Part shown: piece after piece, positions 10,169 through 22,446 of the stretch
Numbering within the stretch: the stretch's first letter is position 1
Layout: every line of letters starts with the position of its first letter
NCBI GenBank assembly: GCA_023245145.1
Contig: JAHFKW010000001.1
Location: 75,823 to 135,416 of the forward strand
Length of the DNA stretch: 59,594 nt
Reading direction: 5' to 3'
Source: Candidatus Staskawiczbacteria bacterium
GTDB lineage: Bacteria; Patescibacteriota; Minisyncoccia; Minisyncoccales; Staskawiczbacteraceae
Position numbers and translations under genes: made by a program
Notes under the pieces: generated by a model
Seen by the model: the letters and a program-made list of their open reading frames with translations, nothing else
Database searches by the model: none
What the model was told of the DNA's origin: nothing

Positions 10169-11113
10169 TTACACCCTTGAAAATCTCGTAAACCCCGAAC
10201 ACGCCACGATTTCAATACCCTGTTTCTGTAATTCATCCATTAGTAAATTCATTCCCAATGAATCAGAGGACATGTGTCCGGCAATCACAATGTTAATGTG
10301 AGCTGCTTCAGCTTCTTTGCGGTGCTCTTCTGATGTGTGCATGGCAATAACCGTCCCAATTCCCGCTTGCGACATTTTTTCATACAGCTTGGGTGAGCCT
10401 TCTGTACCTCCGGTAAACTCCGAAACCGCAATTTTTCCGGCGTGAGCATCGGGCGAACCAACAAACAATTTCGGCCCTACTCCAATTTTCATAGCTTCTT
10501 TATATTCAGGCAACTCTTTTAAGATTTTTAAAACATCGCCAACATATTCTGGTTTTTTTTCATCAATAATATTCTTCACAAAGCGAGCAGCCATGTTATC
10601 GGCTGAAGTGTGGGCTCCCATAAAATTAACTCCCAAAAGACGCGCCATATCAATCGCCCGCTGGTGATTAATAGCGTTAACCCCTCGAGCCACTTCTGAA
10701 ATTCTTACTTTCATCAAACTTTCGGCAATATTAATCGGCACACCGTATTGAGCGAGCACATCCGCTTGTAAATGCATCACATCAGCTAACTGTGCCAACC
10801 CCTTGCCTTCTGGGTGATGGGCAATCACCAAATCAATGCCATCCAATTGCTTAGCCAACAAAATTTCAGCTGGCTCAATATCAATCCCCACCAAGACGCG
10901 TTTAATTTCTTTATCTTCAGCCACATTAAATACACCCGAATCCATGTAGGGGTTTACCAGAGCCTCTTGATCGAATTCATATTTTTGCTCAACAGATAAA
11001 GCGTCAAAAGTCTTCTTTTTTCTATCTAAGAGCTTTTGCACACCTTCGCGACCACGGAAATCATTTTCAATCCCCGTTTGAGTAAATAGATTGTGAATGT
11101 CTTGAATTTTCAT
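10169..11113 (-). CDS. NIF3 (NGG1p-interacting factor 3)-like protein
   Basis: NPYMDS, VGID, IAHHP, AHTSADN, AGHMSSDSLGMN metal-binding motifs. Confidence 0.85.
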   Translation of the reverse strand: MKIQDIHNLFTQTGIENDFRGREGVQKLLDRKKKTFDALSVEQKYEFDQEALVNPYMDSGVFNVAEDKEIKRVLVGIDIEPAEILLAKQLDGIDLVIAHHPEGKGLAQLADVMHLQADVLAQYGVPINIAESLMKVRISEVARGVNAINHQRAIDMARLLGVNFMGAHTSADNMAARFVKNIIDEKKPEYVGDVLKILKELPEYKEAMKIGVGPKLFVGSPDAHAGKIAVSEFTGGTEGSPKLYEKMSQAGIGTVIAMHTSEEHRKEAEAAHINIVIAGHMSSDSLGMNLLMDELQKQGIEIVACSGFTRFSRV

Positions 11114-11329: not shown

Positions 11330-11373
11330 AGCAGTACTTTAACCCAAAATACTCCAAAAAGCAAGTGTCTTTC

Positions 11374-11408
11374 AAAAAAATGCCGGTTTCCACTTCGAGG
11401 AAACCGGC
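11374..11408 (-). terminator. Intrinsic terminator of the STAS gene
   Basis: gccggtttcc / ggaaaccggc stem followed by a 7-U tract. Confidence 0.85.
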
Positions 11409-11412
11409 CAAC

Positions 11413-11784
11413 TCACTTTGCAAACTCCGCGAGCGCAGTTTGTTCGTCTTTTTGGATGTCGAACAGTCTGTTGAGCTTGGTGATTTCGAACACCTCGTAG
11501 ATATCATCGTTGATGGAGCACATGACCAATTTACCTCCCCCCTTGTCTTGGACTTTTTTGTTTAGAACAACCAACTTGTTAAGGAAAGCTGCGTTCATGA
11601 ACTCAACGCTACCAAAGTTAAGCAGGATCTTTTTGCGATCGTACTGATCGACGAGACTGAACAGGTCTTCGCCGATCTCTGTGATGGTCTCCTTATCCAG
11701 GATTTTTTTGTTGAGGAAGCTGACGATGGTGATTTCGCCGTTATCCTCAACTTTGAAACGACTTTTACGGGCCATTGTGAACAT
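11413..11784 (-). CDS. STAS-domain anti-sigma-factor antagonist-like protein (solo cassette 2)
   Basis: KILLNFGSVEFMNAAFLNKLVVL...GGKLVMCSINDDIYEVFEITKLNRLF; GGAGG 5 nt before ATG 11784 (alternative ATG 11775). Confidence 0.88.
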   Translation of the reverse strand: MFTMARKSRFKVEDNGEITIVSFLNKKILDKETITEIGEDLFSLVDQYDRKKILLNFGSVEFMNAAFLNKLVVLNKKVQDKGGGKLVMCSINDDIYEVFEITKLNRLFDIQKDEQTALAEFAK

Positions 11785-11845
11785 AACTTCCTCCAAGTTT
11801 CTGGTGAGTGGGTTTGCAACACAAAGAACAACTATCACAACCACA

Positions 11846-17872: not shown

Positions 17873-20800
17873 TTATTTTTTACTGTTTTTGAACTCTTCC
17901 CTCTGTTTCTCGATAGCCCCTTCCAACTGCTCTCTTGAGGCTAAATCTTTATACAATCCCAACATACCATAAGTCTGCAACTGAGCAAGTTTGGGCATAT
18001 TATTTAGTATGTTTATGACTTCCTCTGTGGAATCTTCAAAATTAAATTGTTTCTTAAAAACATTCCCCCAGGGAGCTATTTCTGGCCTAGTTACAGGCTC
18101 AACACCTTCGTTTTTTAGTTTTTTGATTTTTGCGTCTCTATTCCTCTTTTCGATCAGTGATTCTCCACCAACTCCAGCCAAGAACAGCTGAGCTCCTAAT
18201 CTATCAATTTCTGCTTCTAGCTTTTTCTTTTCCGACTCGTCGGTTGTGCTTGCGAGCATAGCCTCTTTCATTTCTATCTCTCCCCTTAGTAACTCACGCT
18301 CCTTTCTTTCTAATTTTTTAACTTCGCTATTCTTGATAGCTCTTTTTGAGCCCTTATCTGGATTGAAGCCGAGACCACTAGGCATCTTTGCTAGTTCTTT
18401 CCTTGCTCTACCTAAATCTTCTCTTACCACTTCTAGTGGTGTTTTTACTTTGGACTTCTTTTTTTCATTCACCTCCTTTTTAATCCCTTTGGCCTCCAAA
18501 AATCCCTCAACCAAAGTTGGCCATTCATCAGCAGAATTACACTCGTTGCTTAAAAGCATTCTGGTTTTGTTAATAGCACCTTTTTCATCCCAGCCTTTTT
18601 TCTGGAAAAATTCTATTAAGTTATACATAGCGATTACACTCTTTTCCACTTTTACCCGGTATTCATTCACCAAGATCTCTTTGGCAATTTTAGAATGAAC
18701 ATCTGCTGCTGCCGAAGCCAGCGCACCTCTTACAAAGTTGTATAAACTTTCTGGATCAAAGAATAGTTTTACTTTCACTCTCAAAGATTCTAAGCTATTA
18801 GAAGCTGCCATCGCGATAAATTCATCAGCGAATCTTATTAGAGCTTCTTCCTTTTTGGCAGTAAAATATTTCTTTGCACCCTCTTCATTCTCATTCTGGT
18901 TCTCGGCATATTCATTAAGTAACTCTTGGGCCTTTAATTTTTTAGATCGACTCCTATCACCAAATTGCAAATGAGAATTTTCGTGCTTTGCTGTTAGTTT
19001 GCCACTCTGATCTTTCTTCCCCTTTCTGACTTCTTGGTTTTTATTCACCATCATCCATGAAAATCCACCAGTAAATCCTTTGCCTCCCAGAACTTTTTTA
19101 CCTACTTTTTTGGTAATTTTATTTGCCAGGTCGGTATCATCAACTTCTACTGCCAGCCCCCATGGCCCAACGCTTATTTTAACTTTTTTAGCTTCGTCTT
19201 CGGTAAAATCATTTCGTTCACTTATAGTATTAAGCAGCTCCACATTATTTTCTCGTGGTTTCTCAAAAACTACCATAGCTTTTTCTTTCTCTATTTTATA
19301 TCTTCCTATATGTTTCAAAAGAATGCTCTTTTGATCTTCATCAAAAGCATAAGTCTTATCAAACTGTTTTATTACCTGTTCTAATTTATTAATAATATCA
19401 TTGAGATTGCTAGTTGCATAATGCTCTATCATTTCATTGACCATGCCACGGCAATCGGCCAAAGCTTCTTGGCGGATGGCTTTCTTTTCTGGTACCAGAG
19501 CCCCTTCAAGTTGCTCGGGAGAGTTTTTTTCTATTATCTCTTTAAACTTTTCGTTCCAAGAAACTCTTACTTCTTTTGCGGGCTCAGCTTCTGGTTTTTT
19601 TGTGGCAGGAACCGTTTCCACTGTCCTTTTTACATGCCGTTTTCCTGTTGGGCCGGTAAACTTTTTTGAGGCTTCATCGATCTTTTCAGCCCATCGAGGC
19701 ATTTCTCTTTCGTCATGTTCATATCGTGCATTTAATTCTTTTATGGCATGTGGCAAGGCCAATCCCACGCTTAATACACTCGTGAGAACAGGAGCTCGTC
19801 GAGCACACCACTTAAGCGCGCCGGAAACCGCTTTTAGTCCAGTCCATTTCATTGCAAAATCAGTGGTTTTCTTCCACCATGATGGACTAACCTTCTCTTC
19901 AAGTCGGTCAATTTGGCCCAATAAACGGTCTACACTTGTTTGGTCTTCCTCTGCCTGGGCTTTTTTCACAGATACGTTAAGCTTCTTTATTCTATCTTCG
20001 TAGTCTTCTGGGCTGTTCAAATAATCTTCCTTGGCCCAGCGCACACTACGTTCAATTACTTCTATTTTGTAATCTAAAGCCTCTATTTGAGCCTCATAAC
20101 TTTTAATCAGCTTTTTAGTAGCCTTACCCGACCCCCTTTCTTCTGCTGATGCCAACAATCTTTCATATCGCTCTCTATCTGCTAGTAAATTTTGATATTG
20201 CCTAACATCATCTGGCAAATAGTTTTCTACATCTGCTTCTTCTTGTGTTCTTGCAAATGTTTCCTCTAAAGATCTTTTCGCAACTTTCGATCCACTAGTC
20301 AGCGCATCCTCGGGCTTTTCCGCTAACTTGCTTTTTAGCTCATCTATTTCTTTTTGTTCTTTCTCTAGGTCTTTTTCCATCCGCTCGAAATCAAACGTCA
20401 TTGGAATTTCTGCCACTTTACCTGGCCCAGCTCCTACAGCCGGAGCTGCGACAACAACCTCAGGTTTACTTGCCAACTTTTTCATGTCCATAATCGGCGG
20501 GTTTTCAACCACTGTCACCTGTGTTATAGAATTAGGATCTAGCACCAACTTGGTATCAATTTTTGCTGAATCTTCTTTAATTAAGTTCCTTTTTCTATAT
20601 TCTTCTAAAAGTAAATTATGTAACTTGGTATGCCACCCACTATAATCGGGGTACCTTGCCCAACTATTTTCAAATTCTTTATCAAAATCTTCTAAGCTTA
20701 TCGCAGGGTGCTTGTCTAAAGAGAAAGTTGATCCTGAATCTAGCATCATATCTATAAGATTAGACACGTCCTGTCTTACATCAGCTTCCTCTTTAACTGA

Positions 20801-21175
20801 CTCACCAGTACCTTTGTCAATAATCACCTCTCCTGTATCGGGGTCTCTTTTTTCACCTACAATTATTAATTTAGCCTCTTCAAAATCTGAGACTGCTTTT
20901 GCTAAATCAGATAAACTTTCCGCATGATAAACACTTCTCGCATCCTTGTCTTTAATAAGGTCATAGGCACTATGCACTTCTTGAAGTTTTATAGCAGCTT
21001 GGACATCCCCCGTATTTCTATCAGGAGCGTATTGTCCCTTCAAATTTCTAGCCGCTTTGTCTATCTCGTCCTGCGAAGCACGATTAGGAACTCCCAGTAT
21101 TTCGTAGGGGTTTCCAGACTGTGCTCTTTCTTGGGGTATTGGTAATTGATCGAGTTTTGGACCATTATCAGACAT
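17873..21175 (-). CDS. Large coiled-coil protein with N-terminal J-like domain and a HExxH motif
   Basis: NPYEILGV...YAPDRN...AYDLIKD (J-domain pattern, HPD replaced by APD); KHENSH with a downstream DEFIA; E/K-rich coiled coils. Confidence 0.8.
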   Translation of the reverse strand: MSDNGPKLDQLPIPQERAQSGNPYEILGVPNRASQDEIDKAARNLKGQYAPDRNTGDVQAAIKLQEVHSAYDLIKDKDARSVYHAESLSDLAKAVSDFEEAKLIIVGEKRDPDTGEVIIDKGTGESVKEEADVRQDVSNLIDMMLDSGSTFSLDKHPAISLEDFDKEFENSWARYPDYSGWHTKLHNLLLEEYRKRNLIKEDSAKIDTKLVLDPNSITQVTVVENPPIMDMKKLASKPEVVVAAPAVGAGPGKVAEIPMTFDFERMEKDLEKEQKEIDELKSKLAEKPEDALTSGSKVAKRSLEETFARTQEEADVENYLPDDVRQYQNLLADRERYERLLASAEERGSGKATKKLIKSYEAQIEALDYKIEVIERSVRWAKEDYLNSPEDYEDRIKKLNVSVKKAQAEEDQTSVDRLLGQIDRLEEKVSPSWWKKTTDFAMKWTGLKAVSGALKWCARRAPVLTSVLSVGLALPHAIKELNARYEHDEREMPRWAEKIDEASKKFTGPTGKRHVKRTVETVPATKKPEAEPAKEVRVSWNEKFKEIIEKNSPEQLEGALVPEKKAIRQEALADCRGMVNEMIEHYATSNLNDIINKLEQVIKQFDKTYAFDEDQKSILLKHIGRYKIEKEKAMVVFEKPRENNVELLNTISERNDFTEDEAKKVKISVGPWGLAVEVDDTDLANKITKKVGKKVLGGKGFTGGFSWMMVNKNQEVRKGKKDQSGKLTAKHENSHLQFGDRSRSKKLKAQELLNEYAENQNENEEGAKKYFTAKKEEALIRFADEFIAMAASNSLESLRVKVKLFFDPESLYNFVRGALASAAADVHSKIAKEILVNEYRVKVEKSVIAMYNLIEFFQKKGWDEKGAINKTRMLLSNECNSADEWPTLVEGFLEAKGIKKEVNEKKKSKVKTPLEVVREDLGRARKELAKMPSGLGFNPDKGSKRAIKNSEVKKLERKERELLRGEIEMKEAMLASTTDESEKKKLEAEIDRLGAQLFLAGVGGESLIEKRNRDAKIKKLKNEGVEPVTRPEIAPWGNVFKKQFNFEDSTEEVINILNNMPKLAQLQTYGMLGLYKDLASREQLEGAIEKQREEFKNSKK

Positions 21176-21360: not shown

Positions 21361-22446
21361 CTAATCTGAATTGCCGACGCGAACTTCTTGTTCGCGATTA
21401 GCAGCTTTGACCGCCCGGCGGATCAGGTGCCAAAAGGTTTGGAGCTTGCCAAGGTACTCCTCGGCAAGTTCCTCCGACAGACCCATGTCCCGCCTGATGG
21501 CCTTGACGACCTTCGGGAAACTTTCGCCACGCCCGGGAACGTAGCGAGCATTGACCTCTCCCAAGGTCAAACGCATCTTCTTTCCCAGAGCATAGTCACG
21601 CCACCTGGTGAAGGGTGCGCCTCCCACGCCATCGATGAGCGAAACCTTGCCACCGACACTTTCGACGAGGACCTGCCCACCGAACCGCCAGTGGGTCGTT
21701 TCCTTACTGTCGTTGTCCTTGCGACGGACCACCTCCTTGTCAACATTCAGGTAACATCTTCCTGGAACACCGTCACGCAACTGATCAAGCGTGATGGTCC
21801 CCTGGGCTTGAAGCTCCCTTGAACGACGATTCCATTCGTCTTGCATTCTTTGACTAAAAGCGGCAGCGATTCGCCGGATTTCGTCATCCTCACTGCGCTC
21901 CATTGTCGCGCAGTTGATGCACTTGAGGTGCTCATATCCGATGAGAATCGCCTCCGGGTCATCACTCTTGGCGTGCTCCATCAAGCCCCGCGACCGCAAT
22001 TGGTAAGCGGCGCGATGGTAGTCCTCCAGTGACCGGCAGGTCTTTTGGAGAAAAAACTTGATGAGGGTCGCCGCGATGGCGGTGCGAAAGATGGGGTCGG
22101 ACTCGGCGTAGCATTCCTTCAAGAACGCATAAACCTTGTCAGTCTCCGTCTTTAACTCCTTCATCAAGAGCCGACGCTCATCGGGTGTACCCAGGCGATC
22201 CATCTCCTCTTCCACGTCCCGTTCCCACCCGAGGGCTTTGAGGAGATTCACCTTGAGCTGTTTGATCTTGGCAAGCTGTTGTTCAACAACCGCCCGAGTC
22301 TGGTCCATACCCCTGACCTCAACCTTTTGGGGCGAGGTCAAGTCCAACGTGGCAGCATTCTGCCGGAGCCTTTCGGGCGCCGGAAGAAGCTTGGGCATGG
22401 GGGTGACACGTAATCTCTTCATCATTTTTTCGAACTCACTCTGCAT
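21361..22446 (-). CDS. GC-rich hypothetical protein (solo cassette 5)
   Basis: 361-aa ORF; GGGAGGGAG 6 nt upstream; 38 of 60 bases are G/C in line 21601-21660. Confidence 0.8.
   Translation of the reverse strand: MQSEFEKMMKRLRVTPMPKLLPAPERLRQNAATLDLTSPQKVEVRGMDQTRAVVEQQLAKIKQLKVNLLKALGWERDVEEEMDRLGTPDERRLLMKELKTETDKVYAFLKECYAESDPIFRTAIAATLIKFFLQKTCRSLEDYHRAAYQLRSRGLMEHAKSDDPEAILIGYEHLKCINCATMERSEDDEIRRIAAAFSQRMQDEWNRRSRELQAQGTITLDQLRDGVPGRCYLNVDKEVVRRKDNDSKETTHWRFGGQVLVESVGGKVSLIDGVGGAPFTRWRDYALGKKMRLTLGEVNARYVPGRGESFPKVVKAIRRDMGLSEELAEEYLGKLQTFWHLIRRAVKAANREQEVRVGNSD

Follow-up and report, generated by a model that had tools for sequence, protein, structure and literature searches.

A planctomycete gene for a small STAS protein of the anti-anti-sigma type has been captured repeatedly in three families of Patescibacteria, and wherever tested the gene occurs without the kinase gene that adjoins it in most donors. 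One of the copies lies in the DNA analysed here, a stretch of 59,594 nucleotides (the window) from the 626 kb, 99% complete genome of a Candidatus Staskawiczbacteria bacterium (labelled G000; its family, Staskawiczbacteria, is labelled f1, and f95 and f115 are families of other classes). What sets the case apart is that one gene was captured many times, in three families and from several donor lineages of one class. In partner switching, an antagonist of this kind liberates the sigma factor by binding, while unphosphorylated, to the anti-sigma kinase; its phosphorylation then resets the cycle. Judging from sequence, the captured protein may be a decoy directed at the kinase of a host, with the window copy as a non-phosphorylatable variant; we give this reading a probability of about 0.45. 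The interest of the case rests on the repeated, selective capture and on the host prediction that it allows, more than on the alanine found at the phosphoacceptor position of the window copy.

Origin and insertion site of the window gene

The locus includes the following features.

11413..11784, minus strand: STAS anti-anti-sigma-type gene of Gemmatales origin (Pfam STAS, trees)
11422..11760, minus strand: DNA-level similarity to planctomycete donors, 70-71%, in the coding sequence only
11572-11622, minus strand: motif LNFGSVEFMNAAFLNKL of the window STAS protein
11572..11610, minus strand: residues 56-68, at the start of the phosphoacceptor helix; perhaps recombined as a short tract, or convergent
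11590..11592, minus strand: Ala62 codon GCA, at the phosphoacceptor position equivalent to SpoIIAA Ser58
11790..11794, minus strand: Shine-Dalgarno-like GGAGG, 5 nt before ATG 11784, read from the sequence
11372..11408, minus strand: intrinsic-terminator-like hairpin of 10 pairs, 7 of them G-C, with a T run, directly 3' of the stop codon
11846..13042, minus strand: murE-type Mur ligase, a native gene, upstream flank
10169..11113, minus strand: NIF3/DUF34 gene, downstream flank

The open reading frame, with its stop at 11413, gives 123 aa from ATG 11784 (P0122) or 120 aa from ATG 11775 (P0001); residues are numbered here as in P0001. The STAS fold is intact: the protein consists of a lone STAS domain (Pfam PF01740, E 8.3e-10, above the cut-off), and its AlphaFold2 model (mean pLDDT 76) is predicted to resemble SpoIIAA and RsbV (PDB 1TH8, 1TIL, 6M36), with Foldseek TM values of 0.73-0.83 and best matches at TM 0.82-0.83 and rmsd 1.6-1.7. 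In the alignment, Asp27 corresponds to the Asp in the ELD motif of these proteins, which likewise consist of a single STAS domain. By fold and descent the window protein is antagonist-like; it differs from SpoIIAA and RsbV in the Ala at the phosphoacceptor position, in its horizontal acquisition and in its TIGR00377 score (45.9 bits, below the curated cut-off of 53.45), and its genome differs in giving no kinase or phosphatase match.

The preliminary description had proposed, from the letters alone, a resemblance to planctomycete STAS proteins, and this holds. The 119 next-best proteins are 58-68% identical to the window protein, with YLSSAAL in 109 and Ser62 in 117 of them; NCBI organism names were available for three, two being Planctomycetes/Gemmataceae and one Verrucomicrobiae. 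The donor motif quoted there as FLSSAALGKL needs a small correction, Gemmatales donors having mostly YLSSAALGKF. Phylogenetic trees place the window copy inside a Gemmatales clade (99/92), where it groups with the donor L046 and the captured copy L006 (95/95), in agreement with the proposed origin from a host gene nested in Planctomycetota. The closest sampled donors share 68% identity with it in protein and about 70% in DNA; when 1.7 Mb of a Gemmataceae genome was compared, the best matches of housekeeping type reached 38-59%. Among the 80 genome loci that bear a name, 79 lie outside Patescibacteria, and most of these are titled Gemmataceae, Gemmatales or Planctomycetota. A phage origin was considered and rejected, as a single-protein query, which covers close relatives only, found no relative in viral contigs.

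Six loci titled Geobacter or Alcaligenaceae (L047, L058, L082, L107, L108, L118) nest among planctomycetes and carry Gemmatales-type STAS-RsbW pairs; these titles are probably mislabelled or misbinned. In several donors the STAS-RsbW pair is preceded by a DUF2203-like gene (below the cut-off; L046:4352-4816).

The composition of the window gene is foreign, its GC3 of 0.63 (genome mean 0.39) being reached by only 4 of 582 called ORFs. A STAS match is absent from the NIF3 loci of all 21 relatives, and in nine of these loci murE adjoins NIF3; the window gene is therefore a lineage-specific insertion.

Repeated capture and the missing kinase

The planctomycete-type STAS gene was found in 20 of the 78 genomes of family f1, comprising 18 with a near-full-length copy, one with a split copy (G018) and one with a weak fragment (G017). 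A phylum-wide sample of 400 genomes contained it in seven, belonging to two families from other classes, and full searches detected it in 25 of 121 f95 and 8 of 35 f115 genomes. Within the order, the 378 genomes of other families gave only four weak generic matches. Carriage is patchy (21-26% of genomes), which counts against the decoy reading.

Several lines of evidence point to more than one capture. Among 62 copies, 56 are closer to a planctomycete protein than to a copy from another Patescibacteria family. A single clade was rejected when tested on the five f1 copies that have diverged least (p 2.3e-6) and on the window copy together with L007 (p 9e-5), and 13 copies need at least nine donor-label changes on starred branches (118 columns, LG+G4, Pirellulales-type donors added). 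L010 is 61-66% identical to most Pirellulales-type donors, one of which is named Pirellulaceae. Moreover, GC3 rises with identity to the donors (rho 0.55, 23 copies), a trend that captures of differing age would produce. The trees and counts exclude split or partial copies (L018, L019), generic STAS proteins from other families, a different STAS-like family (L025, L030, L037-L040) and, where stated, long branches.

The stronger claim that every copy is an independent capture was rejected, since a typA-linked copy is common to six genomes and another locus to three. Monophyly of the six typA copies was not rejected (p 0.415). Joining the window copy to the typA copies (p 0.25) or to L006 (p 0.16) was rejected in neither case, and in a smaller set a single origin of the nine Gemmatales-type f1 copies other than L007 was also not rejected (p 0.077).

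The copies adjoining a typA-like GTPase gene in six genomes of the genus are L005, L008, L009, L014, L016 and L024; tandem pairs occur at this locus in G015 and G010, and tandem pairs or a triple in the f95 genomes G804, G983, G991 and G1048. The genome studied here has a second planctomycete-type STAS gene (L003; C13:42203-42565, plus strand), 50% identical to donors and flanked on either side by what we take to be glyoxalase-like and exonuclease-III-like genes. The weakly matching STAS-like proteins L025, L030, L038 and L039, found in several genomes of the order, are not of the planctomycete type.

In donors, an RsbW-type kinase gene (PF13581) adjoins the STAS gene in 77 of 79 named loci, 20 of 29 untitled loci and 29 of 30 class-level loci. 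A kinase gene was not found at any Patescibacteria STAS locus examined; downstream of the window gene lie the terminator and then NIF3, not RsbW. A donor-kinase query gave no match to the genome, where PF13581 yielded only a partial match below the cut-off in a 491-aa frame, and an RsbU/SpoIIE-type PP2C phosphatase (PF07228) was not found in this 99% complete assembly. Across family f1, six of the 78 genomes gave partial PF13581 matches, in frames 235-937 aa long; one of these matches, in a 353-aa frame, belongs to a STAS carrier (G003), which counts against the decoy reading. PF07228 was matched in two of 78, neither of them a carrier. The f95 and f115 families have 33 carriers, five of which were searched, and none of the five yielded the kinase (this search had no internal positive control; the same query worked on donor loci).

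The earlier statement that the window holds no cognate anti-sigma factor thus extends to RsbW and RsbU matches genome-wide; its counterpart for alternative sigma factors is true of the window but not of the genome, which has three elsewhere, ECF-like by domain layout. ECF-type sigma factors are not usually run by partner switching. Planctomycetal closest homologs, Ser-bearing donors and no partner-switching system detected in the genome itself are three points on which the preliminary description had staked its reading, and it stood on each. Compared with the Planctomycetia STAS-RsbW pair, from within which it directly descends, the window copy has left the kinase behind, gained its own terminator, evolved faster and lost Ser62. 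The proteome of Tuwongella immobilis lists an adjacent antagonist and RsbW, GMBLW1_32290/32300, whose orthology is by annotation only (PMC8567305). No study of the target sigma factor of the planctomycete pair was found in the open-access literature, and a term search of the Planctopirus essentiality supplements gave no match. All this draws attention to a partner switch that is strongly conserved in planctomycetes and has yet to be studied.

Serine and alanine at the phosphoacceptor position

The Ala noticed at the phosphoacceptor position is borne out by alignment. HMMER aligned FMNAAFLN of the window protein with FMDSSGLG (1th8_B) and FMDASGLG (1tid_B) of SpoIIAA, so that Ala62 occupies the Ser58 position; we take 1tid to be the S58A mutant of SpoIIAA. 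Three further uncommon changes, L60M, S61N and A64F, are present in the helix. Four consecutive diagnostic residues (S56, F59, N66, L68) are of the Pirellulales type, the remainder of the protein being of the Gemmatales type (permutation p 0.013, for a run chosen post hoc). The helix may be a mosaic and is not necessarily binding-dead.

Two ideas about the helix were rejected. G66N was thought to break the kinase interface, but Asn66 is natural in Pirellulales antagonists (45 of 47 proteins plus four genome loci). In the helix of the window copy changes seemed concentrated, affecting 5 of 8 conserved sites there and 6 of 40 in the rest of the protein (uncorrected p 0.01); scan correction removes the significance (42 of 400 permutations), and across 31 copies the helix shows no excess over the rest (102/248 vs 483/1240 sites changed).

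Position 62 is Ser in 129 of 130 genome-derived donors (one Thr), and in the 62 Patescibacteria copies it is Ser in 38, Ala in 7, Thr in 6 and another residue in 11, with a single acidic residue (one Glu, no Asp). Both the sister copy L006 and the second copy of the same genome, L003, which reads YMSSAMLGKF, keep Ser62. The question raised earlier, whether orthologs in the CPR keep the Ala, is answered by these counts: mostly they have Ser. Conversion to a constitutive antagonist, as proposed for the window gene, accordingly lacks support as a general mechanism. The Ser-to-Ala change is real, and it is a tolerated variant rather than the design of the family.

The codons of Ser62 carry a further signal. 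Donors use AGY in 109 cases and TCN in 20, copies AGY in 12 and TCN in 26, and moves between the two codon boxes normally pass through a non-Ser residue. After collapsing the copies to 48 lineages (likely relatives merged), TCN Ser was found in 22 of the 40 lineages that had left AGY; neutral simulation gave at most 5.5%. This suggests that Ser62 was lost and regained, i.e., that it is favoured in genomes without a detected kinase, which is most easily explained if the protein meets the kinase of another organism. Codon-box switches are also seen at Ser61; helix capping, slippage between adjacent Ser codons or unsampled TCN donors could explain part of the Ser62 signal. The GCA codon of the window copy is one transversion from TCN Ser and several changes from the donor AGC.

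The copies are mostly intact and under purifying selection. Substitutions in the window copy are conservative, with a mean BLOSUM score of +0.55 vs -0.36 +/- 0.26 in neutral simulation. The neutral chance of a frame without a stop, indels being ignored, is 0.10 at the divergence of the window copy and 0.015-0.034 at 42-50% identity. Among the copies at the typA locus, dN/dS is 0.16-0.26 in the three unsaturated of ten within-family pairs; for the sole close ortholog pair, L344/L345, dN of 0.039 and dS of 0.064 give a ratio of about 0.6, not clearly below 1. Terminator-like elements are commoner behind f1 copies (14 of 21) than behind donor genes (7 of 78) or native genes (96 of 581, or 53 of 203 when only those with a downstream gap are counted). 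Speaking against selection, conserved sites show losses of 39-41% over the copies and the acidic D27 is kept in 44% of the 62, while the core hydrophobic sites are kept best (L38 90%, F105 84%, V57 81%). End branches of the copies measure 0.2-1.7 vs a donor median near 0.1, indicating far faster evolution.

Possible function and predicted hosts

As a decoy, the captured gene would have reached the symbiont through competence: host DNA would be taken up by the ComEC and pilus ATPase machinery (the genome has ComEC, and four pilus-type ATPases that score over the cut-off), and now and then the small STAS gene would become fixed, as a cassette that brings a ribosome site and a terminator of its own. 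During cell contact the STAS protein would meet the host kinase, and a surplus of unphosphorylated antagonist would titrate this RsbW-type kinase and disturb the partner switch. Copies with a kept or regained Ser, which are the majority, would serve the kinase as decoy substrates, whereas the window copy with Ala62, for which phosphorylation would be impossible, would hold the kinase and jam the cycle. If the protein does reach the host, it would show how epibionts manipulate host regulation. Phages and pathogens carry host-derived regulators as mimics, e.g., phage-borne sigma factors, and here too a regulatory gene of the host is retained, without its pathway, by a dependent organism; in contrast to them, the carrier is a cellular epibiont-type bacterium, and the protein must cross envelopes. 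A hydrophobic signal peptide was not seen by eye in the window protein. Two ATPases (C4:391-1995 and C9:72960-75425), with a Walker A context that presumably is coupling-protein-like, might offer a possible export route. VirB4 (PF03135) was not matched in the genome, and only one of 14 controls gave a match; a published count has it in 2,417 of the 3,035 assemblies of Patescibacteria (PMC12102498).

The missing export signal and VirB4 match count against the decoy reading and fit an internal role, in which the STAS fold is kept inside the symbiont, binds a protein of its own, a nucleotide or entering host proteins, and never reaches the host cytoplasm. The strong retention of the core hydrophobic sites agrees with this, and the single-domain STAS protein SypA is described as acting on partners other than a kinase (PMC10120452). 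We consider such a role unlikely, since Ser appears favoured though no kinase or phosphatase is present to use it, capture is confined to three families and to donors of one class, and the alternative sigma factors of the symbiont look ECF-like. The copies might also be slowly decaying relics, food DNA recombined by chance, with little or no function and the Ala reflecting relaxed constraint. Their rapid evolution, the existence of split and partial copies, the dN/dS of L344/L345, the appreciable chance of the window copy alone staying open and the lack of a significant helix cluster would all suit decay. Yet chance uptake would sample thousands of host genes, while the same 360-bp gene recurs without its kinase neighbour; the conservative substitutions in the window copy, the low dN/dS of the copies kept beside typA in six genomes, where measurable, and the enrichment of terminators likewise speak against relics, which we regard as rather improbable.

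That the Ser-to-Ala change was itself selected, yielding an antagonist locked in its active state by which a host regulon is turned on, seems quite unlikely, even though Ala is the commonest non-Ser state (it is found in P0076 as well), the path from donor AGC to GCA needs several changes, the uncorrected comparison places an excess of changes in the helix, and the natural occurrence of N66 means that binding need not be broken. Ser is retained by the sister copy and the second copy of the genome, a single transversion separates Ala from TCN Ser, which is found more often than any other state in copies, and the helix is no more changed than the rest over 31 copies. Switching on a host regulon, as first proposed, is moreover too simple an outcome: according to PMC13712970, SpoIIAA-S58A is constitutively active yet does not restore productive sporulation, jamming the system instead of cleanly activating it. 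The window copy is like SpoIIAA-S58A and NfsR-S51A, laboratory mutants described in the same source, in being a non-phosphorylatable antagonist, and differs from them in being natural and in its additional helix changes. An artefact, planctomycete DNA mis-assembled or mis-binned into the genome, has a negligible probability despite the deviating GC3 and donor-like DNA in the same runs. It is refuted by contigs from three groundwater runs that join the gene to its native neighbours, X1 and X3 to NIF3 and X4 to murE, with zero differences inside the gene (the check covered four runs of one study, and X1 and X2 may be source data of the assembly). In addition, the window copy is 32% diverged from any donor, and the single-contig genomes G007 and G1034 also carry STAS copies. 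The donor-like DNA pieces, present at low depth in all four runs, are unspecific and come from one study, and they were not counted as support.

Returning to the kinase decoy, capture looks selective within the DNA compared. When the genome was set beside 2.5 Mb from planctomycetes, made up of about 30% of one Gemmataceae genome (1.7 Mb) and 0.8 Mb of loci, only four donor-like genes were detected, two of them the STAS genes; further captured genes may lie beyond this screen. The other two strengthen the clue to the host phylum that the preliminary description had seen in the STAS gene. One (L189; C9:132873-133340, minus strand) encodes a ClpC N-terminal domain that stands alone; it shares 62-64% identity with planctomycete ClpC and might serve as an adaptor or as a substrate decoy. 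Such domains occur in 6 of 78 f1 genomes, five of them STAS carriers (Fisher p 0.004, kin not being independent), and each of the seven copies resembles planctomycete ClpC more closely than it does the other six. The other (L190; C9:56191-57156, plus strand) encodes a predicted secreted protein of 321 aa with a hydrophobic N-terminus and no Pfam match, 63-69% identical to hypothetical proteins of Gemmataceae/Planctomycetes; it scores best in the same donor subgroup as the window STAS gene, where identity is 63-64%.

Hosts are known for very few Patescibacteria, and recurrent capture gives a testable host prediction for each genome. Planctomycetes are likely hosts of the STAS-carrying Patescibacteria, and for the window genome a Gemmatales subgroup is the predicted host, L190 pointing the same way; this suggests baits for co-culture. 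Tentatively, and with less confidence than in the decoy itself, the three families may be independently parasitic on Planctomycetia and steal switch parts, namely the anti-anti-sigma factor and, in family f1, the ClpC N-terminal domain, as decoys that act inside the host. If so, the stolen parts would form a class of effectors taken from hosts, the host lineage could be read from each genome, and an arms race would be visible at the phosphoacceptor codon.

Horizontally acquired genes are known in Patescibacteria, e.g., lysR from Omnitrophota (PMC12455944), a comparable case of a foreign regulator in a reduced genome proposed as a host clue; Planctomycetota are not among the donor phyla in Table 1 of that paper. 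No paper on repeated capture of a STAS gene or on planctomycete hosts for these families was found in the open-access literature, and the terms "Planctomyc" and "Staskawicz" are absent from the main text of a 2026 review of Patescibacteria (PMC13293708). In incubations of groundwater, Planctomycetes and CPR groups have been reported to occur together (PMC12577380), and hosts are reported to mount a transcriptional defence against Patescibacteria epibionts (PMC13622651).

Two other open reading frames of the window deserve mention. A 362-aa frame at 21361-22446 (minus strand), with GC3 of 0.67 and no Pfam match, was not strongly matched by the planctomycete DNA compared (2.5 Mb) and is likely another foreign cassette. 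The frame at 17873-21175 (minus strand) encodes a charged protein of 1100 aa, whose N-terminal stretch weakly matches what we take to be the J-domain of DnaJ.
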